From a virus (taxonomy: Duplodnaviria > Caudoviricetes), in the IMG/VR virus record IMGVR_UViG_3300021399_000132, positions 25,746 through 89,745 of that record: a stretch of DNA of 64,000 nucleotides, one strand, 5' to 3'. Under the pieces are notes generated by a model. That model searched no databases and was not told the DNA's origin. It was given only the letters and a program-made list of their open reading frames with translations. How positions within the stretch are numbered: the stretch's first letter is position 1; each line of letters begins with the position of its first letter. Shown one piece after another: positions 29,404 to 59,853 of the stretch. The translations under genes and the position numbers were made by a program.

Positions 29404-29685
29404 CAATCTGTTACTTTTATGACCATTACAAAAATGGCGGGCAAGTCTTTCGGCTTGCCTCTCACGTTTCACAATGAGATTATTGCGTGAGTTCAGACTG
29501 TATATTCATCCCCATTAGATAGGGGAGGAGAACTTCAGGATGCACGTCGCCGCGCAACCCCTGCAGTCGTTACGGATACAAAGCTAGAATGTGGCTTTGT
29601 CTTTCCTCGGTCTCCGCTGTCTCCAGCCTTTGACCGATATAGTTCTCAACTAAGCATACATTACTGTATGCATGGGCAAAACTTT
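29404..29685 (-). mobile_element. group I intron, ORF-less, 282 nt, in tape measure gene
   Basis: Exon GUGGGU pairs with IGS GCCCAU; P3 GAGAACU/AGUUCUC; P7 GACUG/CAGUC; terminal G; splicing restores STVG-TALKTIS. Confidence 0.9.
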
Positions 29686-32600
29686 ACCCACTGTACTGCT
29701 ATTCTGAATAGCAGCATTTGCCGCCGCAATAAGGGCGGCCGATTTATCAAATGATGTGTTAGTGGCTGCCAATGCGGCACCAGCACGCTCATACGCTTCC
29801 ATCATTTCGCCAGCCGATACAGCGTACTTCTGACCAATGTCAACAAGGACGTCTGATACATGCTCTGCCTGTTCAACATGCATGTTATAACCCTTGATGA
29901 TTGCGGTCAGACCGGTTGTTGCCTCGTCGGTAGAAACGTTGGCTACATTTGAAAGGGTGGTCGCATATTCTGCGAGCACCGTCGCATCCGGTAAAGAATA
30001 ACCGAGTCTTGAGAACACTTCGATAGAGGCTGCGATATCAGTAATACTCTTACCAAGTTCTGACGCGATTTTTGATGCTGTATCGTAGAACTCTTCAAGC
30101 TCTTTATCGGTTGCACCAGTTACGATCTGTAATTGGGCAAAGGAATCTTCAAGCTCAATGGCAACATTTGCCATCTCCCTAAGAGTCTGCCACGCCTTAC
30201 GAGCAAGATAGAGCGGAGTGATAAAGCGAGTTAGTTGCTGGGCGAGCTCAGAAAACTTACTTGATGTTTTATCTGTGCTATAACCAGCCTCATCTAAAAC
30301 CTTTCTATACTCATTTAGTGACCCAGTTACTTGGGCAACTTTCTTATCATATTCGCCTGTCGTATATTCGCCGGAACGTAATTTCTCTTCAGCATCATCA
30401 AGTTCAAAACCTAATTTCTGAATCTCTTCATAAGCTTTACGAACCTTGTCACTACTATCTTCGGCGGCTTTTTCATACCCAACGCATGCGTCCTCGATAT
30501 CCTTGTATACCTTAGCAGTCTTTTTAATATGACTCTCATGCTGACCGAATTCTTTAGTCAAGCCTTTGACTGACATTTCAGAATCACGATAAATAGCCTT
30601 CATATTAGCCATTATCGTATTGAATTCTTTTTGTGTCAGATTAAGCCCGTCGAGTTCTTCCCCCAATGAGCCAAGAAGGGCAAGGTATGCATTTAACCGC
30701 TGAACATTTGCATTGTCCATCGATACGCCCGCGGCGCCAGCATTATTAATAAGGCTAGAAACTCGACCAAATTCTCCAGCAATGGTACCCTGCGCCTGCG
30801 TTGTGTTGACCCTTGCGGCCTCGGCTTTTGCTGCCTCCCTAGCTGCTGCGGCTTCTTCCCTGTTAAGCTGAATAGCGAATCCAAGCTGTTTGGAATAGAG
30901 CTGAATCTCAGCGACCGAATTTTCGAGTGCAGAATCGTAATTGGCCTGAGACATACCGGCGCGATCGATCTCTTCCTCAAGAAGGCTGAACCAATCACGC
31001 ATATCTACGAGAGCGCGAAGTGCCTCGTTATCATCGGTCACACCATTACCGATTGCCTTGTCGATAACGCCTTGTATTTTTAACTGAGCATTCTGTAATT
31101 CCAAAGCGGCGGCCTTGGAATTTACCATTTCAACTTCTTGTTCTTTTTGTGCGGCCGTCTGCTCTTTGAGAATGCTTATTAATAGGCTACTCTTAGACCT
31201 GGCATTATCCATGAAGAGATTGTAATCCTTCTGGGCAACGCCGCCGTTCTTGATGGCATCTTCTAGCATCTCATATGAACCGATCAGGTTTTTAGTCTGA
31301 GTCAATTCGCCACTCTTAACACCAGCCTCCAAAGCTATGTTGTATTCATCTTGAGCTTTACGTTTAGCCTTCGTTACATCTGCCAAACGCCCATCAATTT
31401 CAACAAGTTTTTCTTCAGACGCGGCCGCCTCGTCAGCAGTCATCTTGAAGTTTTCAGCACCTTGAGCTAACTTTGCAGTCCAAGTGACCTCATCTGTTTC
31501 CTCATTAACATCTCGTGTAAACTGTACAATACGCTGGAATGCGCCGCCAGTTTCATTAAGACCGGAAAGAATAACGGAGGTTACATGTCTACCTTCTTCA
31601 CCATAATTTCGCCAGTTAACTTTGACGTTGTCGATCTTCCCATCAACAGCATCCAGGGCGTTGACGATTGATGCAATGTCTTCTTTAGGGACGGCCCTAG
31701 TCGCTAATGCGTCTGCAACGTCTCCTTTGAGCCCCTTACTTTTTGTTACATCGAAAATTGCTTCCTCGAAATCATTTACACTGGATGTTGCAGTCTCGGT
31801 GGCCTGAGAAACGTTTTGCATCCTGTCGATAATTTTATCGAGCTCTTGTGTGCTGTCGCCCTTGAGCGTAAGGTCAACATTATTCTCTTTAAGTATTTCA
31901 ACAGCTCGTGCAAGATTTTCGACATTTGTAATGGACGCTTTACTTACCTTTAATCCATTGATTCCAGAGGTGTCAACATTAAAAATCTTTTCAAGTTTAT
32001 TTGCGTTAATAGCAGTGATATTAGGAAGGTGTGTGGCAAGGTGCTCTAATGATGCTTTACTGACTTTTAAATTGTTTATGCCATTTACAGGATTTGCTTC
32101 GAAAATTTTTTGAACCTTCTCTGGGTCAACCTTCTCAGAAATTGTAGGTAAAAATTCTGCCATATTTGACAAAGAAGTTTTACTAACCTTTAGTTCATTC
32201 AAGCCCGTTATTTCGAAACGAATAGGCTTACCATTGCCAGCATCCGATATAGTCTGAAGCTGCTTTACCAAACTAACTAGATTATTAGCCGTGCTGCCGC
32301 TCATTGACTCACCACCAATAGTTGCCAGGTTTCTAAATGCCTGCGAAATAGAGGCGAGTTTATTGCCGTCAACATTAGCGTATTCAGTCATAGCGGTAAT
32401 TAGCTTTGTTAGTGGTTCATACGCATCCTTCGCCTCATCAGACATTTCGTCAATAGCTTTATTTAATTCATCAAAAGATTTCTTGACGTCGCCAGAGCCA
32501 CTCGCTTCCGGCATTACAAAATTACCATCCTGAATGAGGTTAATCTTTTTTAAAACCTCGTCTAATGTTGTAGTAATAGTTTTTAATGTGGCGAGCAATG

Positions 32601-33048
32601 TATTAAAAACATCGCTATCGATAGACCCACCGCCGGAGACATCGTCACGCATCAAACCATATTCTTCTTTAAACCTAACAATGGCTTGCGATGCCGTTAA
32701 ATAACCTTCTTCTACTTCTCGAAGAGTATCGTCAAAATTGCCAAGATTCCAACCGTCAGAGCTCAACAATTTCTGGGATTCGAGGAACGCTTCTACTTCA
32801 TTTCTGGCGTTTGCCATTGTGTTTTCGAAACGAGCCAATCTTTCATTCATCTCATCGAATCCAGTCTCTTTTTTTAAGTCTGACAATTCCTCTTTTAAAG
32901 ATTCGATTTGATCTCTTAAGCCGCCAATTTTATCATTTAAACGATCAGTCTCTTCGCCTGATGCTTTTAATTCACCTTCCAGTCGAGTGATGTCTTCTTG
33001 ACCGGAGACTTGTACAATGTTATTAATTACATTTTCAAATTTTGGCAT
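29686..33048 (-). CDS. tape measure protein, exon 1
   Basis: Long helical protein ending in the conserved TMP core (LEDSFAQL...NSSTVG). Confidence 0.9.
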
Positions 33049-33061
33049 TTATCTTCACCCC

Positions 33062-33742
33062 CTACAATTTAGCAATCCTTTCATTGACGCGCTGCATAGC
33101 TTTATTGTTGTGTTCGTTGGATATGCTGCAAAACCTTTCGAACATTTCTCCTTTTTCTGCTTCTTCCAGTTTGCGTCTAAAAATATCTAAAGGAGATTCT
33201 GATTGAAATGCCGGGCTGTCATACCAACGACCAAACCTATGCTTAAACATAGTTCCATCGTCGTCCATGACCCATCCAACCGTTCTCCAATAGGGAGTGC
33301 CCTCCGCCGGGTGATATCCCCATTTCTTCGGGTTTGTCGTAATCTTGGTAGCTCCGCCATGAAATCCCATTTCAAATACGACTTTATACAATTCTTTATT
33401 ATTCCCATGACGATCTGGAGCCATTTTACTCGCATCAATTAGGTCGTCAGCTGTTTCGTAATCAAGTTGCCCAGTAGATTTATCTATATCTAAATCTGCT
33501 AATAAATTATATAAGCTTTCTCTTCGTCTATATCTAACAGGATCATATGCTCCATACCATTCTGCAACGGCGGAATTAAACACATCCCGAACGATTCTTT
33601 TTTGTTCTGGAACAAATTCGTCATTGACTTTTGCCATCTCCTTTGACACTTCTTCATTCATGATATCTTGAACAGCCTTTACACGCTCAGCTATTCTCTT
33701 ATTTACGGCGGAGATTACCTTGTTCACTTCTTCACTGCTCAT
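33062..33742 (-). CDS. hypothetical tail-region protein
   Basis: 226-aa ORF directly before the tape measure gene. Confidence 0.65.
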   Translation of the reverse strand: MSSEEVNKVISAVNKRIAERVKAVQDIMNEEVSKEMAKVNDEFVPEQKRIVRDVFNSAVAEWYGAYDPVRYRRRESLYNLLADLDIDKSTGQLDYETADDLIDASKMAPDRHGNNKELYKVVFEMGFHGGATKITTNPKKWGYHPAEGTPYWRTVGWVMDDDGTMFKHRFGRWYDSPAFQSESPLDIFRRKLEEAEKGEMFERFCSISNEHNNKAMQRVNERIAKL

Positions 33743-34133
33743 CCATCATACTCCCGGTTTGTAATATTAACCTGGCGCTTTCCAAAATTGCATCAATCTG
33801 AGCAGGATTTGTTCTTTTGTAGACAATTTCAAAAAGGTCTGACGCGTAAATTATGTAATATAAAGTGTCGATATCGGTTGGCAAATCAACGTAGGCATAT
33901 GCGTTAATAATATTGACCCTAAAAGAAAAATCTAATAACATGAACGATTTGCTGTAGTCATCTCCAATACAATCTTGCACGATGGCGGACACGACTCCTG
34001 TAAATTCGTCTAGTGTGAGCATACTTTTGACTATTATTTCTGAGGTGTGCCACAATGCCTTTTTACATTGCCTGCCGGACACGCCTGCCAATCTTACAAC
34101 ATCATTCGATGACAATTTCTTAATTTGACCCAT
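33732..34133 (-). CDS. hypothetical tail-region protein
   Basis: 133 aa, partly resembling the upstream gene. Confidence 0.6.
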   Translation of the reverse strand: MGQIKKLSSNDVVRLAGVSGRQCKKALWHTSEIIVKSMLTLDEFTGVVSAIVQDCIGDDYSKSFMLLDFSFRVNIINAYAYVDLPTDIDTLYYIIYASDLFEIVYKRTNPAQIDAILESARLILQTGSMMDEQ

Positions 34134-34175
34134 AATTTCATCGATGCCAATGCGGCACCCTCCTTTCTTAATTGA

Positions 34176-34763
34176 TTATCCTCTCTTTTCTACGAGTTTA
34201 TGATCGCGCTTTTTCCTTTCATCAAGCAACGCAGAAACAATTTTATTTTCATCAATATTTGCATTTGACAGTACTTTGATAAAGTCTTCGAATTGTTCTC
34301 CATCAACTTCTCCAACCGTCTCATTCAAAACATTCGCCAGACTCTTCATCATTGCATAGATGTCTGCCATCTGCTTTTCTGCGGCAGATCTTCTGTCGTA
34401 CTTAATTAAGTTGATATGTTCGTTGATCGCAGACCACAGAGTGTCGAGCTGGTCAGGATCAATTACCTCATATACGGCGTCACACAGATTTGTTCCATAC
34501 AAGATCTTGTATTCAGCCGCAATATCTTCAGGCATTTCGATATTTGTATATCTGCGGATTAACTCCCGACGACGTTCAAAATCAAGAACGGCAGGGTAGT
34601 AATCGCCATTCTCATCAATGCATCCGGCAACCACATCATCGATATATCCCATTGCATCTTCAACCGGGAGGAATCTCTTTACCTCAATTGTGTAACCATT
34701 CCATTCAAAAGTTCTAACATCGTTTTCAACAATCGATTCATTAATAGCAACTTTTTCTGCCAT
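34176..34763 (-). CDS. putative tail assembly chaperone
   Basis: Start reassigned to ATG 34763 (AGGAGA RBS); acidic helical; upstream of the tape measure gene. Confidence 0.5.
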   Translation of the reverse strand: MAEKVAINESIVENDVRTFEWNGYTIEVKRFLPVEDAMGYIDDVVAGCIDENGDYYPAVLDFERRRELIRRYTNIEMPEDIAAEYKILYGTNLCDAVYEVIDPDQLDTLWSAINEHINLIKYDRRSAAEKQMADIYAMMKSLANVLNETVGEVDGEQFEDFIKVLSNANIDENKIVSALLDERKKRDHKLVEKRG

Positions 34764-34764
34764 A

Positions 34765-35286: not shown

Positions 35287-35422
35287 TTTCGCTTTTAAGC
35301 TAAATAAAGAAAAGAAGGCATCCCATTACGAGATACCTTCTTACACCCTCAAAAATAAAAAATACCAAGATTAAACAAAGTTGTACTTACACATTCTAGG
35401 CCGTTACCACCAGATGTTAGAG

Positions 35423-35821: not shown

Positions 35822-35829
35822 AATTCACC

Positions 35830-38740: not shown

Positions 38741-38743
38741 AAG

Positions 38744-41743: not shown

Positions 41744-42127
41744 CTATGTTTGGTCTTTGCACCAATAATAAATCGGGATTGCGTCGCCGGAGTCGAATGT
41801 GTCATAGTAGTAGCCATCGACTACAGCGACGACATGATCTCCGGTTGCCAATAAAAAAGTCCCGCGAGGATGATCCTCGCAGAACTCGTAAACTGAATAA
41901 CAATCTGGGCACGTGTTAGGGATCGGATGGCGTGTATATCCGAGTTTGCGCATGTACGCGCCCCAGACAGCATTTGAGTTCGGCATGTCATGCATGTCGA
42001 ATCCCTCGCTTACCAATCCGATATAAGTCGTCTCCCAGCTTTGTCCGGTCACTTTACTGATACCCCTGACTGTACAATCAATGACCAGACGGTTGTCAGG
42101 ATTTGCGTTATAAAATTTAAAAGGCAT
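41744..42127 (-). CDS. hypothetical phage protein (Cys/His, peptidase-like)
   Basis: NP......DCTVR.I...HVVAVVDG.YYDTFDSG pattern. Confidence 0.65.
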   Translation of the reverse strand: MPFKFYNANPDNRLVIDCTVRGISKVTGQSWETTYIGLVSEGFDMHDMPNSNAVWGAYMRKLGYTRHPIPNTCPDCYSVYEFCEDHPRGTFLLATGDHVVAVVDGYYYDTFDSGDAIPIYYWCKDQT

Positions 42128-42684
42128 TACACTACAGCGCCCTTACGGCGCTCGTTCTTCTGATAGTCGCTGATAACGACCTCGCCGCTTTTGATAGAGG
42201 CAGGGACGTCAATGATCCGCTGGTTCGAAGAACCGCGGAAACGAAGAGTAATATCTTTCTTCTCCAGAATAAATTCGCCGTCTACCAGCACGTCGATCAG
42301 CGCGAGAATTTGTTCGGTTTCATCCGAGTAACATCTGGCGTTGACGTCGTGCAACTGCTCCCATGTATAACCGGAATAAATCCAGATCGTCTTATCGGGA
42401 AGCTCGCGGCGGAATCTCTCCAAGAAGGGGAGAAGGGCGGACTGATTCTGGGGCTCCATCGGCTCGCCGCCAAGAATGGTGATACCGTCGATAAAAGATT
42501 TGTTTGATTCAAACATCAGCATGTCTTGAATTTCTTCTGTAAAAGGTTTGCCATAATTGAACGACCAAGCAACCTCATTAAAGCATCCCTTACAATGATG
42601 TGTACAACCTGATACAAACAAAGCAGTTCTACAACCTGCACCATCCGCCATATCAAGCGATTTAATATGTGCGTAGTTCATCAT
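42127..42684 (-). CDS. nrdG: anaerobic RNR activase (radical SAM)
   Basis: LFVSGCTHHCKGC (CxxxCxxC), GGEP, RGSSNQR. Confidence 0.95.
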   Translation of the reverse strand: MMNYAHIKSLDMADGAGCRTALFVSGCTHHCKGCFNEVAWSFNYGKPFTEEIQDMLMFESNKSFIDGITILGGEPMEPQNQSALLPFLERFRRELPDKTIWIYSGYTWEQLHDVNARCYSDETEQILALIDVLVDGEFILEKKDITLRFRGSSNQRIIDVPASIKSGEVVISDYQKNERRKGAVV

Positions 42685-43331
42685 CTGTGCCAGTCATAAA
42701 TATCTTTTGAATGCTTAAAACGCATCTCGACTTCCTGCTGTTTGCCTTTATTGAAAGCAGTAGTATAGTCGCCTGTAAGATAGCCTGTTACTCTGCGCAA
42801 ACGCTGAATGCGCTTGCCATGGCAGACGGGACACTCATCATTCATTTCGTCTGTATACCCACAGTCAAGACACGTATCATTCGGGACATTGATTGCGAAG
42901 TAGGGGATGTCTTTATCCATCGCATAATTAACAATCGCCTCGAGAGCCTCAAGATTGTTCTTTGCGCTTGACTCTAATTCAACATAAGTGATACAGCCAG
43001 CAGAAGAATATCCCGTGAGCTGAGACTCAATATCAATCTTTTCGAACGGGCTCATATCGACCCAAACAGGAACATGAATGCTGTTTGTGAAGAATTCATT
43101 CTCAGAGACATTCGGGATAACACCGTATTTCTTCTTAAACTTCTGCATTGCTGTGAAGCACAGATTCTCAGCAGGTGTATAGTAGACGCCGAAGTTAAGC
43201 TTCTCTTCCTGCTTGAATTGTGCGCAGCGATCTTTGTATAGTTGTTCGATACGCTTCGCAAGTTCCATACCTTTGTCTGTAGTGTGGTCACATCCAATGA
43301 GGATCTGTAATGTCTCCGCTAGACCTAATTG
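42681..43331 (-). CDS. nrdD: class III ribonucleotide reductase, exon 3
   Basis: QLGLAE...; Zn site CLDC...CPVC; glycyl-radical loop RVTGYL. Confidence 0.93.
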   Translation of the reverse strand, partial: QLGLAETLQILIGCDHTTDKGMELAKRIEQLYKDRCAQFKQEEKLNFGVYYTPAENLCFTAMQKFKKKYGVIPNVSENEFFTNSIHVPVWVDMSPFEKIDIESQLTGYSSAGCITYVELESSAKNNLEALEAIVNYAMDKDIPYFAINVPNDTCLDCGYTDEMNDECPVCHGKRIQRLRRVTGYLTGDYTTAFNKGKQQEVEMRFKHSKDIYDWHR

Positions 43332-44591
43332 CTTACCTACCCTCGGTTTCCCGATATTTAATAAGGGGAGTAGACTATTCATTCAGGATTAGATTTTGTT
43401 TGTTATTTCGTCTAATCGGAAACTTTTCATTTGTGACCAATGACCATTGTTTGCCCTGGTTTATTCTATCAATTGTCGTCCTCGAGACAGCGAACCGCTT
43501 TGCGATTTCTTCTATACTGACATTTGTATTTTTTAACATATCCGCCACCGACAATATATCTTTATCGTCTAATTTGCGGCAGAGTCTTCTTGGGGCGTCG
43601 CTGTTCCGGTGGCTCTTTTTTCTTATCGGATACGTTTCATCGAGCACTTTACACCACGCACTTTTCCCTCTGTTAATCTGACCGACAGTATACCCCGGGA
43701 TGCCCAGCTTCTCCCCGATCTGATCTGCAGACATGTCGCTATCCTTCAGCATCTTAACGATCATTTTGACGATGTCCTCGTCGAGCACAGCTCTCTGAGC
43801 CGACGGATTTCGTAGCGGATAATTACTGTTACTGTCGCGTCTTCTCTTACCGGCGTTGATATCGCAAACGGCATAAAAATCAACGCCAACAAGCTCGGCT
43901 ATTTTGCTAAAAGAGTAATCGCTCTTCAGTAAATATTCTTTAACCAGGTCAACCTGTTCTTCAGTATATTTTGCTGTGATCCTTTCTGACCGCAACGGAT
44001 AGCGATAGCCGTCAAGCCTATATCCGCCATTACCAAGATTCGCTTCCGAGACCTGATAAATAGAGCAATCACACTTTTTACCTATCTCTTTAAACGTCAA
44101 GTCCGTGTTCAAGATTAGGTCGGCAATCTTGGAGGCTAGCATTGGATTTACTGCCCTTCGAGTACGCCCCTGACCACCAAGCGTCAAATTGTATCCATTT
44201 ACGTAACTCTTGTATTTGTCTATATAGTATATTTCTCTTTCATCAAGCAGCTCTTGTGTTTGAATGTTGTCTTCCAAAATCTTCAACTCAAAGTTATTCT
44301 CACCATACTTTTTTAACGCCCTATCAAAATATGAATCTTGGTGTAAATGATCGTAGTGACGTTTTTTTATTGGGCAAATTGTCTGACCAACATAGCATTT
44401 ACCATTCACCAAGTTTCGATATAAATATATACATCCGTTCATCCTAGAACCTCTATTTTTTTAATTTCTAATCCTGCCCCAATTGTAGTCGTTGAACCTT
44501 CTTCATTTTTTTTGATGAAGCTTGGCTGCAGATTGCCCGCGTGGGGTGTCCCTGCAATTTATGGGGTTTATAGTGAGCCAATTTGTTAAAA
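43332..44591 (-). mobile_element. group I intron nrdD-I2, 1260 nt, with GIY-YIG ORF
   Basis: GUGGGU pairs with GCUCAC; P10 AAUUG/CAAUU; P7 GACUA/UAGUC; terminal G; restores TLAVG-QLGLAE. Confidence 0.93.
43375..44442 (-). CDS. intron-encoded GIY-YIG endonuclease with four HTH repeats
   Basis: CIYLYRNLVNGKCYVGQT; stop codon lies in the P7 3' strand. Confidence 0.9.
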   Translation of the reverse strand: MNGCIYLYRNLVNGKCYVGQTICPIKKRHYDHLHQDSYFDRALKKYGENNFELKILEDNIQTQELLDEREIYYIDKYKSYVNGYNLTLGGQGRTRRAVNPMLASKIADLILNTDLTFKEIGKKCDCSIYQVSEANLGNGGYRLDGYRYPLRSERITAKYTEEQVDLVKEYLLKSDYSFSKIAELVGVDFYAVCDINAGKRRRDSNSNYPLRNPSAQRAVLDEDIVKMIVKMLKDSDMSADQIGEKLGIPGYTVGQINRGKSAWCKVLDETYPIRKKSHRNSDAPRRLCRKLDDKDILSVADMLKNTNVSIEEIAKRFAVSRTTIDRINQGKQWSLVTNEKFPIRRNNKQNLILNE

Positions 44592-45240
44592 ACCCACTGC
44601 GAGCGTGCCGTGTTTGAGCGCGCTACGAATACCTTCTTCTGGGTGATAACCCATCATTGTACCGTTTTCATACATGAACTTTGCGGAATCGGGTGACTGC
44701 CCGGCAATCCAGTTGAAACGCTCAATGAGCATGTCTCTGGCCTCGAACAGTTTCTTGTCCAGAATCGCCATAAACTCTTCGACGATATCTGTGCCATTCT
44801 CCTCTGCCTTTTCCTTCGCATCCATGGCAAGGAAGGGGAGGAGGATTGTGACAGGGGCGATATTACCTCTGCCATCCTTTGTCTGAGGGTTAACCCCAGG
44901 CTCGTGGTTAATGTCATACCCGTTTGCTGTACGGCAGCCCATGGTGCTGAAGTAAGTCGATGGATCGTTTGGATCATATCCAGCGTTGCCAGACCAATCT
45001 ACGTTTGCATAGTTCGGATAGAGACGCTGCGCAGTAGACTTAAGAGCAAGCTGGAACAGATCGTAGTTCGGATCGCCAGGCTTACGGTTGACACCCTTCA
45101 TGCACTGGAAGATGCCGCATGGGAAGATTGATGTTTTATGAAGTCTTCCAAGACCTTCAATGGAGACTTTAAGGATCTCCTCGGTTACCATGCGTCCCTC
45201 GGCAAGGGTGCAGGTGCCGTAGTTAATAGATGTAAAGGGT
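44592..45240 (-). CDS. nrdD: class III ribonucleotide reductase, exon 2
   Basis: PFTSINYG...MGCRT (catalytic Cys loop)...KHGTLAVG. Confidence 0.93.
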
Positions 45241-45521
45241 CATACATCATGTTATCGTGCGAGCTTTTTATCTCGCACATCTTGTAATTTCTTACAAGTT
45301 CAGCGTACGTTTTCACCTTCGTCATTACACGTTAAGGGCGGACACTCTTGGGCGGATTATATTTATTCACCGCCTACGCGTTACGATACTAAACAGCCTT
45401 TCGCGATCTGTTTAGTTATCTCGGCGTTACCATACTTTATGGGTAACAATAAAGTTTAGGGTTCGCCGATTTTGCCCGGATTTCGCTAACGATTTCGCGT
45501 TAGCCAGCCACCCTGTAATTT
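45241..45521 (-). mobile_element. group I intron nrdD-I1, ORF-less, 281 nt
   Basis: UCAGCU pairs with GGCUGG; P10 AGGGU/ACCCU; P7 GCGUA/UACGC; terminal G; restores SGNQL-PFTSINYG. Confidence 0.93.
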
Positions 45522-46459
45522 AGCTGATTTCCACTTCTACTCTGTAAGGTATTCAGGTTGTGATACATTCCCTCAACACCCTGATGAATCTCTTTGCGGG
45601 TCTGATCAATCGCATACTGATAAGCCCTTGGATATTTAAAATAAACCTCGTCTTCAATGGTAACCTTCGTCGGGTCTTCAAGTTCAAAATGCGCATCGTT
45701 CTGTGCGAGATACCTTACACCATCCTTGTAATGTTTATAGAAACTTTTCCGGACATACGGAACCATCGTCCAATCAATGTGGCTGGCAGACACACCGCCA
45801 AACTGCTGGAGAGACTGCAACTGGAAAATAACAGCAACCAGTTGGAATGCAGTATTAACCGAATTGGCGGGACGAACATCTGTCTGTCGCGTGTTAAATC
45901 CTTCGGCAAGCAATTTGTCGAACGGAATAGTCAGACAGTTATGGTTCCCGACTGCGTACGAATCCAAATCATGAATATAAATGTAATTGTCGAGATGGTT
46001 GTTACGAGCCATCTCTGACATACAGTTGTCGAGTGCGAATTTCTTTGTAAGGGCGCGATTTGCTTCGCCCATTCGACCACCAAATGATCGTTCATCAACA
46101 TTAGCGTTCTGGTTCTGTACATCACTCGCATCAAGCTTTCTAGCAACCTCACGCATGAACGCAGTATTATATTCGCGGACTCTTGTTCGCTCATAGCGAT
46201 ACTTAATGTAAGCCTTAGCCACGTCCTTACGCTTGCAAGACATCAGTCCATGTTCAACCAAGTCCTGAATCTCTTCTACATCAAACTCATGATCTGCCTT
46301 CTTGACAGCATCTTCAATATAGTTTGCGATGTTCTCGGCTTTAGTCTGTGCATATTCTGTTACTTCGCCGTCAACATCCTTGAACGCAGCCAAAACTGCA
46401 TTGACAATTTTGGTCTTGTCGAATTCGCGCTTCGCGCCATCCCGTTTTAAAATTCGCAT
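45522..46459 (-). CDS. nrdD: class III ribonucleotide reductase, exon 1 (ATP cone)
   Basis: ILKRDG...FDKTKI ATP cone; IYIHDLD; spliced protein 745 aa. Confidence 0.95.
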
Positions 46460-46499
46460 TTCGTACCTCCTAATTAATCAAATATGTCTAGGTAATTAA

Positions 46500-46529
46500 A
46501 AAAAGAGCGTGCCATCATTGACACGCTCG
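46500..46529 (-). terminator. intrinsic terminator
   Basis: GAGCGTG...CACGCTC followed by a T-run on the - strand. Confidence 0.75.
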
Positions 46530-48331: not shown

Positions 48332-48833
48332 AAACTGACTCTTTTCTGTTCGTCGGAATAGGCCGCTTTGGATCGCGGAATTTGTTGACCTCACTTGTAT
48401 GGAAGATCAACATCTTTCCAATATGATCGGTCTGCGGTGCGAACCTTTTGCAACCATAAATCTCGAGAGGGCCGAGGCCGTAGAATCTACTGCCGTTAAT
48501 CTTCTCGCAGATCTTATTGCATAAAGCATCAACCCGGACACCACCCTCGGGCAGACGCATTTGCGATCTATGCGCAAAAACCCAGATGTATAAGACAGGA
48601 GTGAGGAATGTCTTATTTGCCGCGGCGTAAATATCTACGTCACAACAAATATAAGTGAGACCTCGCTCGGTTGTATCTGGAACGTATTCGTATGGAAAGA
48701 CCTGCGTATACGCAAGTGACTTACCATCTTCAACGGAAACAGAATCGTTGATCAAATGAACGATCTCACTATCTGTAAGTAGATCCTTCATGAGCCGATT
48801 CTTATAATCGAAGTAATCTGCAAGCTGTGCCAT
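48318..48833 (-). CDS. putative tail terminator / completion protein
   Basis: Start reassigned to ATG 48833; synteny only. Confidence 0.5.
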   Translation of the reverse strand: MAQLADYFDYKNRLMKDLLTDSEIVHLINDSVSVEDGKSLAYTQVFPYEYVPDTTERGLTYICCDVDIYAAANKTFLTPVLYIWVFAHRSQMRLPEGGVRVDALCNKICEKINGSRFYGLGPLEIYGCKRFAPQTDHIGKMLIFHTSEVNKFRDPKRPIPTNRKESVYADS

Positions 48834-49164
48834 TACAACCACACTCCTTCCGCCGGGGTAACCGGAGTTTCTTTGGGGAAGTACTTATAATAATCAGCAA
48901 TCATGAGATCCTGATTATCATCTTTGGTTGTTTGCACTTCCTGTAAGACCCACTTAAATGCGCCTTCTCCGGCATAAATGCCGTTGAACTTAAGTGGCTT
49001 CGATAATGTATATGCTAACTTAACTGGAGACGCTGGGTCGTCAATCAAAAATCTTGTTGTACGACCAAGGCATGATGTTTCATCGTTCTTTGCAATTGTA
49101 ATTGCAATACGCGAGTCACCACGGCTGACCGCAAAGTTACGATCTTCAAATTCGCCGGTAAGAT
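48833..49164 (-). CDS. putative head-closure/neck protein, exon 2
   Basis: (Y)LTGEFEDRNFAVSRGDSRIAITI; spliced protein 258 aa. Confidence 0.8.
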
Positions 49165-50158
49165 CCGTATTGTTCAGTATGTTATTATGCAAAACGCCAG
49201 ACATAACCGCCAGCGCTATTTCGTTTACCATGACAGCATTGAGAAATATGGGAATGTGATATACCGCACTCTAATTCGGCATCACGCGCCGCTCTAAATG
49301 AACGAATGAATTCGCCATCTTTTGTAAACATATTTATCTGCTTGCTGTTGCCATCGCCAATTTTACGCTTATGCTCGTCAGAAAACTTGCGACCGCGCAA
49401 ACCCTCCGAACGTCTCCTAAGAGTCTCTTCCGAAAGATTCTCACGGCGACGTGCATTAGATAACTTGGCTCTTGTCTCTGCGGAAGGGTGGTAATCTGGT
49501 GTCCCATCTCCGCCTGACGTCATGTTATAACCGTATGCTGAATCTTGCGTGTGCCAAAGACTGATTAACATACGCTCAGCCATCTTTGCTTCTTTTTCGC
49601 CGACGTCTGTGAGTATAACTTTGTGTTCGAATCCGTCCCATCCGTACTTCTCAATCGCAGAATAAAAATGCGGGTTCTCTTTGTACCCGCGTCCACCACT
49701 CCAACGATGCTCGATTTTTGGTTTAGACGTAATGCCAACATAACGTTTGCCATTTGTTTTGTTTACATGAACGTAAACTTTCCACTTCTTTTCCAAAGTT
49801 ACTCTCCTTCTTTGCATAATAAAAACAGGGTCGCTAACCCTGACTGGTATCTAAATACTCCTCTATATTTCTATAGAGCGCAGATCATATCTTCACCTTG
49901 CCACATTGTGGTTTAGGGCTCCCCACTTCGAAGCGCTTGCTTCTACGCCAAATTTAGGGCTGATCGTTGAACGTTCTCCTATTCGGAGCTTCGCTGCTGA
50001 TTGTCCAATTCTTATTCTTTTCCCGCATTCGCGCCTAGCCGTTTCATGCTTACGCTGTAGCGAATAAGACTCTAAGGAGTTTCCAGCAATTAAGGGAGTA
50101 GTTTTTACGCAACGTTTCCATTGCGCCAAGCTGTGTCGTGTGCGGTCACACACGATCA
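49165..50158 (-). mobile_element. group I intron, 994 nt, with GIY-YIG ORF 3' of P7
   Basis: CAAAGU pairs with GCUUGG (one mismatch); AAUUGCUGGAAAC core; P7 GAUCA/UGAUC; terminal G; restores EDGTK-Y-LTGE. Confidence 0.88.
49185..49796 (-). CDS. intron-encoded GIY-YIG endonuclease with NUMOD3/NUMOD1-like tail
   Basis: KVYVHVNKTNGKRYVGIT; HSAETRAKLS-type repeats; TTG start after AAGGAG. Confidence 0.88.
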   Translation of the reverse strand: MEKKWKVYVHVNKTNGKRYVGITSKPKIEHRWSGGRGYKENPHFYSAIEKYGWDGFEHKVILTDVGEKEAKMAERMLISLWHTQDSAYGYNMTSGGDGTPDYHPSAETRAKLSNARRRENLSEETLRRRSEGLRGRKFSDEHKRKIGDGNSKQINMFTKDGEFIRSFRAARDAELECGISHSHISQCCHGKRNSAGGYVWRFA

Positions 50159-50603
50159 ACTTTGTTCCGTCTTCTACAACGCACCACTGCTCAATAATGC
50201 GCTTATCTGCCGACACCCACTTCAGCAGAAAGTTACACTGCAAGAGCTTTGCTCTGGTGTATACCGTTGTATTAGCGTCACGTTCAGTAACAAGCCAGTA
50301 CTGATCCATCCAATGAACCAGCGACCCATTCTGAATATCATCACCGGGAAGTGAGAAGATGTACTTCTCGTTCAAGTTATCCGAGTTAATAATAGCCACA
50401 TTCTGTTCGAACATATATTTGGACTGCACCTGTCGGTCATCAATGTTGTAACCGTGGAAGCAGTCAAACATTTCTACCTGATGGTAGGAGAGTGTGTCCG
50501 GCACCCTCTTGTTAAGGTCATGAATCTCTCGGCGGAGAGCCGTCTGCCTTCGAGTTCTGCCATGGACGTCAGCGCGTGCTTCATAAGCCGACCACGCTGT
50601 CAT
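50159..50603 (-). CDS. putative head-closure/neck protein, exon 1
   Basis: The last 88 aa of the track ORF read into the intron; function from synteny. Confidence 0.8.
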
Positions 50604-53072: not shown

Positions 53073-53078
53073 CTCCTA

Positions 53079-53615: not shown

Positions 53616-53642
53616 TAAGTGTTTTCCTCCTTATAAAGTGGA

Positions 53643-55289
53643 TTAATCAATTTCCCCGAGGTAGTGTTCAACTACACCGCCATAAGGCTTGGGGGAGTTA
53701 CTGCGTTTAGTGTCTAATTTGATCTTCGGGGAAGATGAATTCTCATGAAGGGAGAAATTCACACTAACACCCTGTCTGCCTCGGATTGCGAAGCACTTTT
53801 CTTCCAGTGTCGCCAGATCGTACTGGTCAGCATTAGCCTGGAGTTCTTTGAATGCATCAACATCAGCGAGGTCTTCGAACTTACTGAAGAGTTCATTTCT
53901 TTCCTGCTCCGCAGCGGCAGACTCTACGCTTGCCTTGAAGTTGCGCAGCTCTTCGCATGTTGCTTCGAGGGCGTTGAACTTCTCGTTCAGTTCCGCGTAA
54001 GCAGATTCTGCACTTTCTTTTGCGGCAAACTTTTCGTCAAGCGCTTCGAACATGGAGACCATTGCCGGGTCGACGGACTGCTCTGAACCTTCAACAAAAT
54101 CGACAAATGAAATAAGCACGCGCTTCTTGGAGCCGAAGTCAACGATGCACTTGTCATTATCGAATCTGTAAGAGAGGGCGTAGTAGAGGAAGTCAACGGG
54201 GTCCTGTACATAAAGTTCTGACTTATCCGCGTCAAAGTCCTCGTACCAATAAGGGCACTTCTCTCCCCAGCGGTTCATGACCGGATGAGTTTCGAGTTCT
54301 CTACGGAACTCTTCTACCATGTTCCTGACGAGAACAAACTCTTCTGTGGAAGCTTCTTCCTCGGCTTCCTCAACCTCGGATTCAGATTCTTCAACAGCAG
54401 ACTCTGTCTCTTCTTCAACCTCAGCGAATGTTTCTTCCTGAGGTGCGCTTTCCGCGTCGGAGTCGTTGACACTTTCGGACGTCTGCATAGCTTCGAACTT
54501 CTCTGTCAGCTCTTCAATAGAAAGATCTTCGATGGAGAAATCCAGAGCTTCGACATCGATGCCGTATTTCTCGGCGAGCTCAATCTTGTCTTTCAATGTC
54601 TCTACGTCTCCTTTCGTAAAATAGTGTGGGTGTATATCATCAACATCCTCATCGGATGATGTGACCAAATTAAAAGATGCCCTCAGATCATTCATCATCT
54701 CTGAGAGCTGTTCCTTATATGCCCGCTGTGAGAATACCTCAATTGCAGCATCCTCGAAGCAGGGCTCGACTCCGATAGCAGTAAATGCCGTAAACTCGAA
54801 GTCTTTAATGTAGTACAGTCCATCTTTTGTCTCCATATCATTTACAGAGATTTCCATAGACTGGTTAGTAATGCCGTCCTTTTTTACCTTCTGATACGCA
54901 GCCTGTCTCTTCCAGAAAAGAGCTTCGGCGTACAAATACTCACGTTCAACACCGTCCTCACCGGTATAGTTCTCAAACCATACCTTGGCGCTCTCGGGGA
55001 TAACACCAATCGGATCAGTTGTGTTAATAATCCGTAATGCGCCTTCGGAATCTCTCACGAGCTCAATGTCGTGACCGCCGAGCTCATCAGTGCTGATATC
55101 GTAATTGCACACGATGGGGCAGTTGTAAATTGACGGCAATGCCTTTTCAAAGCTAGCCTTTGAAATAAATGATTTGTTTCTATTCTCACCGGTGTACGCG
55201 ATTCGAATAACACCGGCATCAAAAGATTTATTTACTTCCGTAAGCTTTGAAACATTGGAATCGAACGTGAGGTTCATAACATTTGGCAT
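53643..55289 (-). CDS. prohead protease-scaffold fusion
   Basis: N-terminal domain with NQSMEI, then an acidic coiled coil. Confidence 0.7.
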   Translation of the reverse strand: MPNVMNLTFDSNVSKLTEVNKSFDAGVIRIAYTGENRNKSFISKASFEKALPSIYNCPIVCNYDISTDELGGHDIELVRDSEGALRIINTTDPIGVIPESAKVWFENYTGEDGVEREYLYAEALFWKRQAAYQKVKKDGITNQSMEISVNDMETKDGLYYIKDFEFTAFTAIGVEPCFEDAAIEVFSQRAYKEQLSEMMNDLRASFNLVTSSDEDVDDIHPHYFTKGDVETLKDKIELAEKYGIDVEALDFSIEDLSIEELTEKFEAMQTSESVNDSDAESAPQEETFAEVEEETESAVEESESEVEEAEEEASTEEFVLVRNMVEEFRRELETHPVMNRWGEKCPYWYEDFDADKSELYVQDPVDFLYYALSYRFDNDKCIVDFGSKKRVLISFVDFVEGSEQSVDPAMVSMFEALDEKFAAKESAESAYAELNEKFNALEATCEELRNFKASVESAAAEQERNELFSKFEDLADVDAFKELQANADQYDLATLEEKCFAIRGRQGVSVNFSLHENSSSPKIKLDTKRSNSPKPYGGVVEHYLGEID

Positions 55290-55307
55290 GTGTTCACCTC
55301 CGTGTTC

Positions 55308-55499
55308 CTAGTTACCGTTCTGACTCACAAATGACATGATACTTGTCATGGCATACTGGTCAGAAGGCAAATCTATATCGAGCAACACATCGTTTTCAAA
55401 TAGGTAATAGTTTGTGTTGCCGTATATTAAATTGAATCCTTGTTTAATGAGGGCGTCCCTTGCCTCATCAGTAAACACTACGATAAATGGTTCCGTCAT
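55308..55499 (-). CDS. small hypothetical protein
   Basis: 63-aa ORF overlapping the portal stop. Confidence 0.55.
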   Translation of the reverse strand: MTEPFIVVFTDEARDALIKQGFNLIYGNTNYYLFENDVLLDIDLPSDQYAMTSIMSFVSQNGN

Positions 55500-57037
55500 T
55501 GCTCGGCCTCGATGTTCGCTTCACGCGAATCACTGACCTCGCCAACGCCCAACGTAGGACGTCCTGCTTCACCGTCAGTAGGGCTGTCGATGCTGGAAGC
55601 AGAAGTATTGTCGCTGCCCATCTGAGTCGAACTCATTAACGGTTTGAAACGCTTCTGTAAATTCAAGACGGTAGTCTCAAGATATGACATAGAGTCCATA
55701 GCCATCTGATCAAGACCCGAAGCAACACAATAATAGGAAACCATCGGGATACCGAACTGACATGCCTTTAAATAAGTGCCAAGCATCTCTTCTCTGTTGA
55801 AAGGGGAGATGTCAAGAATATTAAGTCTGAAGAAATGAGCATATGGACGCGTAGCCAAATATCTGTTAATTGCATCAGTGATTGAAAGAATGATGCCATA
55901 TGTAATAGCCTGGTCTGCCTTGATAGAAAGCAGCAACGCGTTTGAGCTTGCTTTGGCGTTGTTAAATAAAAGGGACGAAACACCTGAGGCTGTAAATAAA
56001 CTTTCCTCAGCTTCCGTGACAGTCTGAGTGTCGCCGGTGTTCGAACGCTCAAATGAAATCTTATTGATCGGCATCGGTGTGAGAACTGATCCTATTTCTT
56101 CAGGCAAAACAGCATCGAGGTTTTTCCAGAAAGCTTCAGCCTTATCCAGGTCAATGCCCCAGTTGCCTTCGGCGTCAAGGGGAATTGTCATAGACACAAG
56201 TGCGTAGTTCTCTAACGCCGCCCGCTCTAGTTTAAGGTCTTTGAACTCCTCGATATCGAAGACCTCTCTGAGCACTCCAGCGAATGGCGGAATCGCGTAT
56301 TCGATAATATCTGTATTACACTTGATCGCAAACGCCTTTGGAGAATCGAGTGTAATCCATCGATTACGGATGGATCTACCGCTCCGTTTGTATTCTTCGT
56401 ACTTAATACGGAACTCTTCGGGATATGTCTCAAGCAGGTCTTCACGATTTGTGAAATAACTAAAATTAAAAGTAACGTTAAACACGTTACCCTCAATTTC
56501 ACTGATCGCACAATAATCGGATGGAAGCTGCAAGATCGTTAACGTATCGCCAAGCTCCCACAAATATCCATAGAAAACGTCCTCACGAAGAACAACTGTC
56601 AGGATCTTTTTAAGCTGCGTTTTAAGATTCATTCCTTCAAGAATCTTTAACGTACGGCGATAGTTCAGATTAACAATGTTCGCACTGGCGTTCTTTGGAT
56701 CAATTCCATACGGCTCGATGAGATAGTCGATATCACTCAGCCCAACGAAGTACTGAATGATTCTCCTAAAGTGCGAACTAACCTGATAAATATAGCGTAC
56801 AGCTTCACGAAGCTGCCGTTCAAATCTGTATGGATTGGCAAGCCACATTGCAATATCATGCTTCTTGTATCGCATGAAGAAATGTGGGTACTGTTGTTTA
56901 TAATTGTTCAAGTCACGCAACAGAAGCGCCGTGACAGGACTTGAAAATTTAAATTCTGGAGAGGACGACTTGCCCGAACCGAGCGGGATGAAAGAACTGT
57001 CAGTCGTCGTCTTTACATCTTTTTCCATGGTTACCAC
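55496..57037 (-). CDS. portal protein
   Basis: 513 aa directly after terL. Confidence 0.75.
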   Translation of the reverse strand: MVTMEKDVKTTTDSSFIPLGSGKSSSPEFKFSSPVTALLLRDLNNYKQQYPHFFMRYKKHDIAMWLANPYRFERQLREAVRYIYQVSSHFRRIIQYFVGLSDIDYLIEPYGIDPKNASANIVNLNYRRTLKILEGMNLKTQLKKILTVVLREDVFYGYLWELGDTLTILQLPSDYCAISEIEGNVFNVTFNFSYFTNREDLLETYPEEFRIKYEEYKRSGRSIRNRWITLDSPKAFAIKCNTDIIEYAIPPFAGVLREVFDIEEFKDLKLERAALENYALVSMTIPLDAEGNWGIDLDKAEAFWKNLDAVLPEEIGSVLTPMPINKISFERSNTGDTQTVTEAEESLFTASGVSSLLFNNAKASSNALLLSIKADQAITYGIILSITDAINRYLATRPYAHFFRLNILDISPFNREEMLGTYLKACQFGIPMVSYYCVASGLDQMAMDSMSYLETTVLNLQKRFKPLMSSTQMGSDNTSASSIDSPTDGEAGRPTLGVGEVSDSREANIEAEQ

Positions 57038-58614
57038 GACCCTCCTCTGTCTATATGTCTTCTTGGGGCTCGAATTTGATACATCGAAGCCTCGGCAACA
57101 CCCTTGTTTTGACGACGAGATTCTTTAATGTCTATCTGCGTCGCAACGTAGTAACAGTAGGCAAGGGAAGAATATCTATCCTTGCGCATGCCAGTCTGTT
57201 CAAAAACACGGATGCGTGAACCAGTCTGCTCATGCCTAAGCTTTGTTAGCTCGTCGATGAGTAGGGTGGTATGAATATAAGGTAACTGCAGAGACATCTT
57301 CTCTGCGGGATTCAAACTGTTGTAGCCTTTTAACGATTTGAGATTTTCTTCCCCATCAGATTCGTTCATAAGCAAACGAATACGTCCGTTGTTCAAGGCA
57401 TCTCTTAAAAGGATCGCGCTGTCTGAGTTAAATTGCGCAGACCCCTTGATAGACCATATGCACTTTCTGGCACCCGGCACTGTGCATCTGGCCGCCATAT
57501 TATCGTCATTACAACAAGACAGCGCCGGATATATTTCACCAGTCTCTGGGTCGTCTAGATCCTTCGATAGAGCATCATAAACACCAAGACCAATTCCATT
57601 AGTGTCGAGGACTAGATAATCACATTGGAACTCGTCAAACAACCTTCTAATTACAAGAGCCTGGTCTTCTGTTCGGAGACCTTCATAGGCATTACCATAA
57701 ACAATATTGTTTGAATATCGCCCAGCCTTTGTTGGGAGCATTTGATCTATCCACACAGCCGTGGCATCGTTCTTGTGCTTCGTTGACGCCATGAGCGCGA
57801 TATCAGCGGACAGAATTCGTTTCTCACCATTTACTTTTGGTGGGATACGGATGTTTGCGTTATCTTTTAACTTTCGCGAAAGCTTGTCCGGCAACATCGG
57901 ATACCTGATTCGTCTGTTGCGCACAATCAAATCATAATTGAAGAAGGCGTTATCTGAGGCACCCCAGAACAACGCACCCATTTCTTGGCTAAACTTGATT
58001 TCACTGAAATCAGAATCGGCCATTTCGTCGGCGACAAATTCTGGGTCGAGCATGCCTTCTGCAATAGGTAATTGATAGGGGAAGCTGCATACAAACTGCT
58101 TTCTGCTTGGATTAACCATTGCATGCAATGTATCTATGCATTTCTGATAAGACCAGTTCTCTTTCCAGTAAGCGCTACTGAGGTACATTGTTAAGTTCTT
58201 TTCTTTACGCCACTCCTTCTTACGCTCCTCTAGCGATAAGGCGTTATAATCCGGTTGCCTTGTTAGCGTCAAGAACTTTCGAAGGATGGTATCAATCGTA
58301 TCCTTTGGAACAAGCCTAAATTCATCAACGAGAACAACATTTGCGCGGTTGCCACGTGCTGATTCGCCAGCCGTGACAACTTTAATTACACTTGAATTCT
58401 TAAATGTAATAATCGCGTTCGTTGGATTAATCTTAGTCTCCTTCCAATCGATCTCGGCCTTGAGCTCTGGCGACCTCGGGACTAGTTCTTGTGTGATCTT
58501 TTCGAGCACGTTGATCGATTGCGACCGAACAGACGACGCAACACAAACACGTGTGCCCGGGTAGAGTATGCATCTTACTACACAATAGATGGCGCTTAAG
58601 AATGTCTTTCCAAG
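57031..58614 (-). CDS. terL: terminase large subunit, exon 2
   Basis: LGKTFLS; Walker B VLVDEFR; nuclease ADIA...KDRYSSL; spliced protein 585 aa. Confidence 0.92.
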   Translation of the reverse strand, partial: LGKTFLSAIYCVVRCILYPGTRVCVASSVRSQSINVLEKITQELVPRSPELKAEIDWKETKINPTNAIITFKNSSVIKVVTAGESARGNRANVVLVDEFRLVPKDTIDTILRKFLTLTRQPDYNALSLEERKKEWRKEKNLTMYLSSAYWKENWSYQKCIDTLHAMVNPSRKQFVCSFPYQLPIAEGMLDPEFVADEMADSDFSEIKFSQEMGALFWGASDNAFFNYDLIVRNRRIRYPMLPDKLSRKLKDNANIRIPPKVNGEKRILSADIALMASTKHKNDATAVWIDQMLPTKAGRYSNNIVYGNAYEGLRTEDQALVIRRLFDEFQCDYLVLDTNGIGLGVYDALSKDLDDPETGEIYPALSCCNDDNMAARCTVPGARKCIWSIKGSAQFNSDSAILLRDALNNGRIRLLMNESDGEENLKSLKGYNSLNPAEKMSLQLPYIHTTLLIDELTKLRHEQTGSRIRVFEQTGMRKDRYSSLAYCYYVATQIDIKESRRQNKGVAEASMYQIRAPRRHIDRGGSW

Positions 58615-59853
58615 CACTTGTTAACCTAAGAGCTTTTTATCTCTTAGCTCTTATACTTTCGTATAAGCTCAGCATATATCTTCACCCGCATTGGGCGGCG
58701 GACACTCGTGGCGATATTATTGCTCCCAAATCACGCTCAATCGCTATGCGTTACGATACCAACAGGTAATTGGTTATCTCGGTGTTGGCATATCTAAAGA
58801 CTTAGCGTTCACCGATATTGCCCGCTTTCTACTACGTATTGCTACGCAGCAAGGCCATAGAAATTTTCAAAGATCGAATACTTGCGATTTAGTTTAATCG
58901 CTTTTTTGTCTGCGTATAGATGTTTAAACAATGCGGCAACAGAATCCTTCCTGTAACACCTCAGTGTGTACTTTGGCATATACTGCCCGCGCTGTTCACG
59001 ATAAATTGAGGTATGTATTCCATAATCATCTAAAAGTTTAGATTGTATGTATTTAAGAACGCAATCGCTAGCACTTGCGATGCCGACGTCGAGGTACTTC
59101 CGTTGTTTTGTTACCCATCCGTCGCCATCAATATACCCGCGCAAAAAATCGAAGAATAGACTATCGTCTACAACCGGGAACCTGTCACTATGGCTCTTTC
59201 GCAGATCAATTCCATTAGCCATCAAATCAGTTACCATCTTCTTTGAATAAACGCGCAACACGCTCGAGTCAGTTTCTGATTCATTGCGGTTATTTGCGAT
59301 CAGTAGCTTGTTATGATACTGCTTAATTACATGTTGACCACCCAACGCATTGTTGAGCATGTGAAGAATATATTCATCACATCGTTGCAACTCCATCCCA
59401 AATTCATAACTCAGGCGGCTGTTTGGGTCACTGCTATCTCTCTTATGAACCGAAATCCAACCGTCTGCATAAATAAAACCGAGCCAATAAGCTCGGTCTG
59501 GTGTATTTATTTTCTCGAAATAATCTTCGTTGAATACACGTGTTTTTAAAACGCGATCCTTAATGTGGTTGCGAACCCAAGCCTCGACTTGTTTGCTTGT
59601 CAGCCCGAGATGCTCACCGATCTCCGGATAGGTCATAGTTTGGTAGTTGGCAATGATATATTTTGAAGCCTCATCGTCGAGATCCAGCCTCACACGCTTT
59701 CTCTTTGTAGGCCAACCACTTCGACGAACTAACATTTGCACAGAACTTTTATTTATTCCCAAATGTTCAGCAATCAAACTATATGGCTGCTCCATATAAT
59801 GATCTTTAATATATTCCTTTTGTTCCGTATTCATCTTTTATTTTTCCTGTTTA
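58615..59853 (-). mobile_element. group I intron in the terL Walker A motif, 1239 nt, LAGLIDADG ORF in the P1 loop
   Basis: CGUGGU pairs with GCCUUG; P10 UUUCUAUG/CUUGGAAA; P7 GCAUA/UAUGC; terminal G; restores CRG-LGKT. Confidence 0.9.
58842..59834 (-). CDS. intron-encoded two-motif LAGLIDADG endonuclease
   Basis: YWLGFIYADG and FLRGYIDGDG; two N-terminal HTH-like repeats. Confidence 0.88.
   Translation of the reverse strand: MNTEQKEYIKDHYMEQPYSLIAEHLGINKSSVQMLVRRSGWPTKRKRVRLDLDDEASKYIIANYQTMTYPEIGEHLGLTSKQVEAWVRNHIKDRVLKTRVFNEDYFEKINTPDRAYWLGFIYADGWISVHKRDSSDPNSRLSYEFGMELQRCDEYILHMLNNALGGQHVIKQYHNKLLIANNRNESETDSSVLRVYSKKMVTDLMANGIDLRKSHSDRFPVVDDSLFFDFLRGYIDGDGWVTKQRKYLDVGIASASDCVLKYIQSKLLDDYGIHTSIYREQRGQYMPKYTLRCYRKDSVAALFKHLYADKKAIKLNRKYSIFENFYGLAA

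Follow-up and report, generated by a model that had tools for sequence, protein, structure and literature searches.

What interrupts four conserved genes of an uncultured phage at five places, and why are the interruptions kept? The window analysed here, 64,000 nucleotides (nt) long, comprises bases 25746-89745 of the 89,745-bp IMG/VR viral contig IMGVR_UViG_3300021399_000132, whose completeness is estimated at 76%. The genome is that of an uncultured SPbeta-like phage of gut or rumen Clostridia; homologs of its neck gene and of its large terminase gene, terL, are found in metagenome-assembled genomes (MAGs) of Lachnospiraceae and Oscillospiraceae, and megablast against 50,697 GenBank phages returned no match to its nrdD or terL regions. 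A first-pass annotation, made from the letters of the sequence, had described five intervals in this window as group I introns and had suggested that their splicing might form a GTP/Mg-sensitive checkpoint of virion assembly, or that their endonucleases might be turned against co-infecting relatives. Three of the intervals do lie in virion-assembly genes, those for the tape measure protein (TMP), a neck protein and TerL, and two in nrdD, here termed nrdD-I1 and nrdD-I2. The spliced proteins were searched by tblastn against related IMG/VR loci, about 100 in number and designated by L-numbers; L122 is the Oscillospiraceae MAG contig CANQKZ010000001.1.

Junctions and restored reading frames

All five minus-strand intervals are exact insertions with the boundaries originally assigned to them, each preceded by an exon U and having G as its last base (Table 1). 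Joining the flanks yields single open frames with one terminal stop, of 2533 amino acids (aa) for TMP, 745 for NrdD, 638 for TerL and 258 for the neck protein. The junction peptides are STVG^TALK in TMP (caret, junction), SGNQ-L-PFTS and LAVG^QLGL in NrdD, DGTK-Y-LTGE in the neck protein and, within Walker A, ACRG^LGKT in TerL; the predicted ligated TMP junction joins ...CAGTGGGT to ACAGCATT..., and that of terL joins ...TGTCGTGGT to CTTGGAAAG... Family profiles run across the joins: phrog_4211 passes from position 770 to 772 in TMP, phrog_16444 from 126 to 135 in the neck protein and phrog_15503 from 95 to 96 in TerL, and the Pfam NRDD profile is shared out over the three pieces of nrdD (2-158, 180-361 and 362-562).

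A survey of relatives, which the first-pass annotation had proposed, found uninterrupted alleles of every gene. At the protein level these align across all five junctions without indels, and the DNA alignments are ungapped at four (TMP, nrdD-I1, neck gene and terL), so that these four boundaries are unambiguous. For nrdD-I2, blastn against L010 gave no match, and the junction is therefore supported by protein alignment. Intron-free alleles read through the junction of TMP in L103-L108, and others are found for terL in L005, L006, L007 and L008 and for the neck gene in L089, L092, L094-97 and L100-101; L010 has neither nrdD-I1 nor nrdD-I2, and the latter is absent from many other loci as well. 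The terL gene at L122:2525-5122, of 56% identity, also reads through the Walker A site and is interrupted elsewhere, near residue 257, by an insertion of ~860 nt.

The insertion-site motifs, in the order TMP, nrdD, neck gene and terL, are NSSTVG^TALKTISARIRG; SRSGNQLPFTSINYG; GTLAVG^QLGLAE; VEDGTKYLTGE; and Walker A (ACRG^LGKT). Each host gene is interrupted where its motifs are most conserved, a pattern expected of homing targets. If left unspliced, the exon frame ends after 0-11 codons in four of the introns, the neck-gene intron being the exception, and full-length TerL, TMP and neck protein could be obtained only after splicing, as first proposed. As alternatives, inteins and fractured genes were rejected in view of the stop codons directly after four of the junctions and the presence of ribozyme cores.

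Ribozyme cores and intron lineages

The Rfam group I model RF00028 (gathering score 50 bits), a search likewise proposed at the outset, recognised four of the five cores: those of the neck gene (59.9 bits), nrdD-I2 (45.8), terL (40.9) and nrdD-I1 (25.2). The TMP intron was missed, a 400-nt slice around it giving no group I match even at E<=10. All five introns nevertheless contain a perfect 5-bp Watson-Crick P7 with G-C as its first pair, in exactly the strands quoted by the first-pass annotation: GACUG (29564-29568) with CAGUC (29496-29500) in TMP, GCGUA (45375-45379) with UACGC (45303-45307) in nrdD-I1, GACUA (44486-44490) with UAGUC (43373-43377) in nrdD-I2, GAUCA (49961-49965) with UGAUC (49883-49887) in the neck gene and GCAUA (58745-58749) with UAUGC (58672-58676) in terL. 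A P7 that varies yet pairs is to be expected of any group I intron, and nothing special to this phage.

The TMP intron was modelled manually, with P1 UGGGU/GCCCA, P2 with a GUAA loop, P3 GAGAAC/GUUCUC, P4 UCGGUC/GACCGA, P5 with a GAGA loop, P6, P7, P7.1, P8 and P9-P9.2; its internal guide sequence (IGS), GCCCAU at 29672-29677, forms a 6-bp P1. Its thermodynamic fold reproduces every nested helix of this model, P1-P6, P7.1, P8 and P9-P9.2 being recovered at a minimum free energy of -104.6 kcal/mol (z = -6.3). A pattern search of IMG/VR for the TMP P7/J8-7 core found no copy of it.

Covariance modelling connects this core to two of the others. The training set of the model, R1, was the stretch of the core from P4' to P7' in nrdD-I1, in terL and in five homologs from relatives; TMP was left out. 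In the alignment of this lineage (TMP, nrdD-I1 and terL), 95.9% of pair cells are canonical, against 28-45% in controls with slid partners, and 12 of 19 pairs show changes on both sides, a level reached in none of 500 shuffles; covariation is seen in P6, P7 and P7.1. With filters off, the TMP core (29492-29612) is the best non-training match to R1 in the whole window, at 25.6 bits (E about 7e-4), the next best scoring 13.6 bits; default filters miss it. Over 100 related loci R1 found training members only. The nrdD-I1 and terL introns are detectably similar by blastn (E 4e-9), R1 ties TMP to both, and a P7.1 hairpin between P7 and P3' is common to all three.

R1 matches neither nrdD-I2 nor the neck-gene intron, which have in common a P4-P6 pattern well modelled by Rfam. 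Direct similarity between these two is weak (E 0.18), and it is relatives that bridge them: the neck-type introns of L093 and L102 match nrdD-I2 at E 2e-4, and introns at nrdD site 221 of relatives match the neck core at E 9e-20. Thus, of the two lineages originally described, the grouping of TMP, nrdD-I1 and terL is supported by blastn, R1 and P7.1, and that of nrdD-I2 with the neck-gene intron only loosely. The introns of L093 (4442-4751, RF00028 93.5 bits) and L102 (4397 onward), related group I introns, lie 8 codons downstream of the window's neck site; L093 has a second RF00028 match, of 64.9 bits, at 7129-7445 in another gene.

Pairing of the exon U with an IGS G, claimed for all five introns, is found in TMP, both nrdD introns and the neck gene, and not securely in terL. 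In both nrdD introns P1 is canonical and a 5-bp P10 directly adjoins it, the IGS being GGCUGG at 45504-45509 in nrdD-I1, whose fold has z = -4.8, and GCUCACU from 44578 (intron positions 14-20) in nrdD-I2. The neck-intron core (about 49861-50158) has a P1 of 4 bp only, exon AAGU pairing with IGS GCUU (50128-50131) after an L1 hairpin. The same-site homologs in L091 and L098 show a compensatory change in this helix, exon AAAU with IGS GUUU, in the same place immediately 5' of P2. The terL core (about 58615-58845) is separated from its 5' splice site by an open reading frame (ORF) for a LAGLIDADG protein, which starts 20 nt into the intron and fills the P1 loop, and no IGS is found near that splice site; relatives of the ORF are only 25-34% identical, and of no use for covariation in the terL P1.

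Mobility, splicing and retention

Endonuclease genes are present in three of the five introns, the TMP intron and nrdD-I1 being without an ORF. In nrdD-I2 the ORF lies in the P8 loop, its stop codon overlapping P7', and its product combines a GIY-YIG domain (PF01541, 35.5 bits, above the cut-off of 22.6) with several helix-turn-helix (HTH) repeats. The neck-intron ORF, 3' of P9, has a GIY-YIG match of 20.0 bits, under that cut-off, together with NUMOD1/3 and I-HmuI NUMOD-like domains; the two GIY-YIG proteins are 30% identical over the catalytic domain (BLASTP E 3e-10). The terL-intron ORF product is of the double-motif type, with PF00961 at residues 117-184, PF14528 at residues 230-304 and N-terminal HTH repeats.

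Presence and absence of the introns vary among close relatives. IMGVR_UViG_3300021431_000089, the closest full-length relative (terL 87% identical, nrdD 94%, neck gene 93-97%, TMP 75%), has none of the five, and L009, whose nrdD at 1446-4486 is 99-100% identical to that at 42681-46459 of the window, keeps nrdD-I2 (also 99-100% identical) and is without nrdD-I1; it follows that the introns are dispensable as well as polymorphic. L090, L091, L098 and L099 also have an insertion at the neck-gene site. Exon identity changes around two of the sites in a manner that looks like conversion tracts centred on them. Between the window and L009, nrdD exons are 97-100% identical everywhere except in the ~80 nt just 3' of the nrdD-I1 site, where identity falls to 87-92%, a dip that is likely to be a co-conversion tract. 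The intron-free terL of L006 (3665-5575) is 95-100% identical to the window within ~60 nt of the site and 72-85% elsewhere, a pattern resembling a patch of conversion with the homing site at its centre, or else precise loss of the intron.

In this phage group nrdD is a hotspot for introns, relatives having at least six of its sites occupied: insertions occur at about residues 166, 221, 303, 312, 414, 529 and 582, up to five per gene, several being confirmed as RF00028 matches, and introns at other nrdD sites match the 3' module of nrdD-I2 at 93% identity. Genes with multiple insertions are seen at L087:100-4852 and in L086, L088, L083 and L082; in L087 two RF00028 matches, at 1120-1346 (85.3 bits) and 1416-1658 (35.5 bits), are separated by a mini-exon of ~8 codons.

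From these data it is very probable that all five intervals are group I introns that splice in vivo, the terL P1 being the weakest point, and their distribution fits that of mobile, dispensable selfish elements and not that of an obligatory regulatory device. On the mechanism that we propose, five independent group I introns would interrupt the TMP gene, nrdD (twice), the YomX-family stopper-like neck gene and terL. Each intron RNA would fold into a P1-P9 ribozyme; the exon U would be held in P1, and exogenous guanosine would attack behind it; the terminal G would then fill the P7 site, and ligation of the exons would give full-length mRNA. The three endonucleases presumably cut intron-free alleles during co-infection, recombinational repair copying the intron in, and the ORF-less TMP intron and nrdD-I1 may be passengers or degenerate derivatives.

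Several observations weigh against this interpretation. Three of the four Rfam matches are under the gathering score and TMP has none; the terL IGS candidates, GCUGCG and GCCUUG (58845-58856), are weak, lying in the last ORF codons ~1 kb from the 5' splice site, and neither of the P1 helices that they would make forms in silico when exon and intron ends are folded with the ORF removed. In the neck gene the reading frame of exon 1 runs on for 88 codons into the intron, across P1-P8, before it meets a stop in J8/7 (window 49893-50603, minus strand), so that ribosomes could interfere with folding of the ribozyme, and a terminator-like hairpin, CAGGGTTAGCGACCCTG then TTTTTATT (49826-49842, minus strand), lies between the core and the GIY-YIG ORF. 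Both splicing and homing, moreover, we infer from DNA sequence. At least one insertion, most likely that in terL or TMP, might accordingly be splicing-dead, its gene being made as separate polypeptides or dead, as in a decaying phage or a fractured gene; the weak terL P1 candidates, the missing Rfam match in TMP and the estimated incompleteness of the contig would agree with this. We consider it quite improbable, as all exons are intact, highly conserved and free of frameshifts, the terL break falls inside Walker A so that separate halves would be non-functional, the TMP core is full and stable, and the identical nrdD-I2 in a second sample (L009) implies that the intron-bearing phage circulates.

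If the introns do splice, other reasons for their retention than selfish spread deserve weighing. Splicing might be a GTP/Mg- or translation-sensitive checkpoint that gates packaging, neck closure and tail length, a proposal favoured by the impossibility of making full-length TerL, TMP and neck protein without it, by the unusual neck read-through with its terminator-like hairpin and, as far as the source that cites it goes, by the dependence of T4 intron splicing on translation and growth state (Sandegren & Sjoberg 2007, cited in PMC8541194). No conserved regulatory feature was found, however, and the introns are of different lineages, sit at conserved motifs of the classic homing type and in three cases carry endonuclease genes; the intron-free terL, nrdD, neck gene and TMP of the closest full-length relative, and the absence of nrdD-I1 from a 99%-identical fragment, leave the checkpoint put forward in the first-pass annotation unsupported and extremely unlikely. 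A narrower version confined to the neck gene, in which unspliced RNA would be translated into a second isoform of 236 aa, the stopper domain with a tail encoded by the intron, or the entry of ribosomes would adjust the amount of full-length neck protein, also seems very improbable to us. For it speaks the open frame of ~88 codons through the core, kept in three of four same-site introns (92 codons in L090, 88 in L091, 11 in L098) and matched or exceeded in only 17 of 5000 shuffles of the neck core; if it held, the efficiency of neck-intron splicing would set the stoichiometry or timing of a virion-completion step. A better case, still a tentative one that may well not hold, can be made for the endonuclease introns being advantageous besides being selfish, through interference competition or marker exclusion: when intron-free relatives infect the same cell, their terL, nrdD and neck genes would be cut. 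The GIY-YIG and LAGLIDADG ORFs are intact, closely related alleles without introns are present in the same series of samples (3300021431 is one example), exon identity around the insertion sites is conversion-like, and in PhiPA3 an intron endonuclease has been shown to act in competition between phages (PMC11620839); ORF-less introns cannot act so, and the idea is applicable only to the three that carry ORFs.

The neck gene, genomic setting and known phage introns

The neck gene was labelled a head-closure gene in the first-pass annotation, and fold and gene order give that label moderate support only. Its homologs carry PF27289/PF27197 (YomX_N/YomX_C), YomX being an SPbeta-named family, and no sequence-level family was found beyond these; the split exons and an intact homolog gave no family match in a Pfam set that lacks PF27289. 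An AlphaFold2 (AF2) model from 45 sequences had a pLDDT (predicted local distance difference test) of 78, one from 5 sequences (pLDDT 38) being discarded. Residues ~20-125 of the retained model match the Pam3 neck protein (Z 9.6), PBSX XkdH (Z 9.3; root-mean-square deviation 2.3 Å, 76 residues), the phage 812 stopper (Z 8.3) and the lambda neck protein (Z 8.2), and, lower down, the T1 stopper, SPP1 gp16 and T4 gp14 (Z 6.4-7.6), nearly all top matches being neck proteins; Foldseek against PDB returned nothing at E<=1e-3. The position of the gene fits a stopper, since known stoppers lie between head-tail adaptor and tail genes. The two domains of the model are separated by an invariant loop of low confidence, and it is there that the intron site falls.

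Table 1. Predicted exons, introns and intron-borne ORFs of the four genes (positions in the window)
Feature	Position	Strand	Evidence
TMP exon 2	25165..29403	-	phrog_4211 resumes at 772, at T of TALK
TMP intron, ORF-less group I, 282 nt	29404..29685	-	U/G boundaries, restored frame, intron-free alleles
TMP exon 1, 1121 codons	29686..33048	-	PHROG tape-measure families
nrdD exon 3, glycyl-radical domain	42681..43331	-	Pfam NRDD 362-562 and Gly_radical
nrdD intron 2, 1260 nt	43332..44591	-	RF00028 45.8 bits
GIY-YIG ORF of nrdD-I2, 355 aa	43375..44442	-	PF01541 35.5 bits, HTH domains
nrdD exon 2	44592..45240	-	Pfam NRDD 180-361
nrdD intron 1, ORF-less, 281 nt	45241..45521	-	RF00028 25.2 bits, P1-P9 aligned
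nrdD exon 1, ATP-cone and start of NRDD	45522..46459	-	Pfam
Neck gene exon 2	48833..49164	-	phrog_16444 135-212; junction confirmed
Neck-gene intron, group I, 994 nt	49165..50158	-	RF00028 59.9 bits, above gathering score
GIY-YIG/NUMOD ORF of neck intron, 210 aa	49185..49817	-	Pfam, BLASTP
Neck gene exon 1, stopper-like domain	50159..50603	-	phrog_16444; fold matches
terL exon 2	57031..58614	-	phrog_15503 96-241, terminase PHROGs, Pfam TerL_ATPase
terL intron, group I, 1239 nt, splits Walker A	58615..59853	-	RF00028 40.9 bits (58650-58900)
LAGLIDADG ORF of terL intron, 330 aa	58842..59834	-	PF14528 54.8 bits, PF00961 32.5 bits
terL exon 1	59854..60186	-	phrog_15503 17-95

All the genes concerned lie on the minus strand within one late module, in the order terS-like gene, terL, portal, scaffold/protease, capsid, adaptor-like genes, neck gene, tail genes and nrdD-nrdG cassette, the TMP gene being further downstream. 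The cassette (42127-46528, minus strand) is embedded in the virion module, with tail-region genes on one side and the TMP region on the other, and is directly preceded by a strong terminator-like hairpin (46505-46528, minus strand). A tRNA gene (62585-62656, minus strand; Rfam tRNA, 53.2 bits) is found just upstream of the packaging module.

With five introns of at least two ribozyme lineages in four genes, and three endonuclease genes, this is an intron-dense phage, from a group that has been little studied, the SPbeta-like phages of gut or rumen Clostridia. Only one intron in five reaches the Rfam gathering threshold, and terL, TMP, nrdD and the neck gene would come out of standard gene callers truncated or in pieces; the annotation of metagenomic phages therefore has to take account of introns. 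The natural pairs of alleles with and without introns (L009, L010, L089 and L006) are ready material for work on homing and competition.

Introns in TMP, terL, capsid, tail and nrdD genes have already been published, and a stopper-like neck gene may be a new target; we found no published intron in a stopper or neck gene, and nothing useful on YomX, in the open-access papers searched. The TMP genes of Bacillus cereus-group prophages have group I introns at three positions, IVS1-3 (Tourasse & Kolsto 2008, PMC2504315), which resemble the present one in interrupting a conserved TMP region of a Bacillota phage and differ in the group of phages that carries them, ours being an uncultured phage of gut or rumen Clostridia. 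Among late, highly expressed structural genes, group I introns occur in the Twort tail-tube gene orf142, which has three (PMC11878797), in the LittleE capsid and BAKA minor tail genes of Cluster J mycobacteriophages, where reverse transcription PCR (RT-PCR) proved them (PMC3706429), and in the Tuc2009 capsid gene. RT-PCR in such systems shows efficient splicing (PMC3706429); the target differs here, being a stopper-like gene of the YomX family. Introns in ribonucleotide reductase genes are known from T4 nrdD (sunY), SPbeta, Twort and Bastillevirinae (PMC3984707, PMC11878797); like those predicted here, they are self-splicing group I introns, with or without GIY-YIG genes and several per gene, whereas the present nrdD combines two introns of different lineages, and among its relatives six sites or more are occupied. 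In the large terminase gene, group I introns with homing endonuclease genes are found in Bastillevirinae such as SIOphi and in Shewanella phage KASIA (PMC11878797, PMC8541194). Their endonucleases are described as HNH, whereas that of the terL intron in this window is a double-motif LAGLIDADG protein, encoded between the 5' splice site and the core of an intron that splits Walker A.

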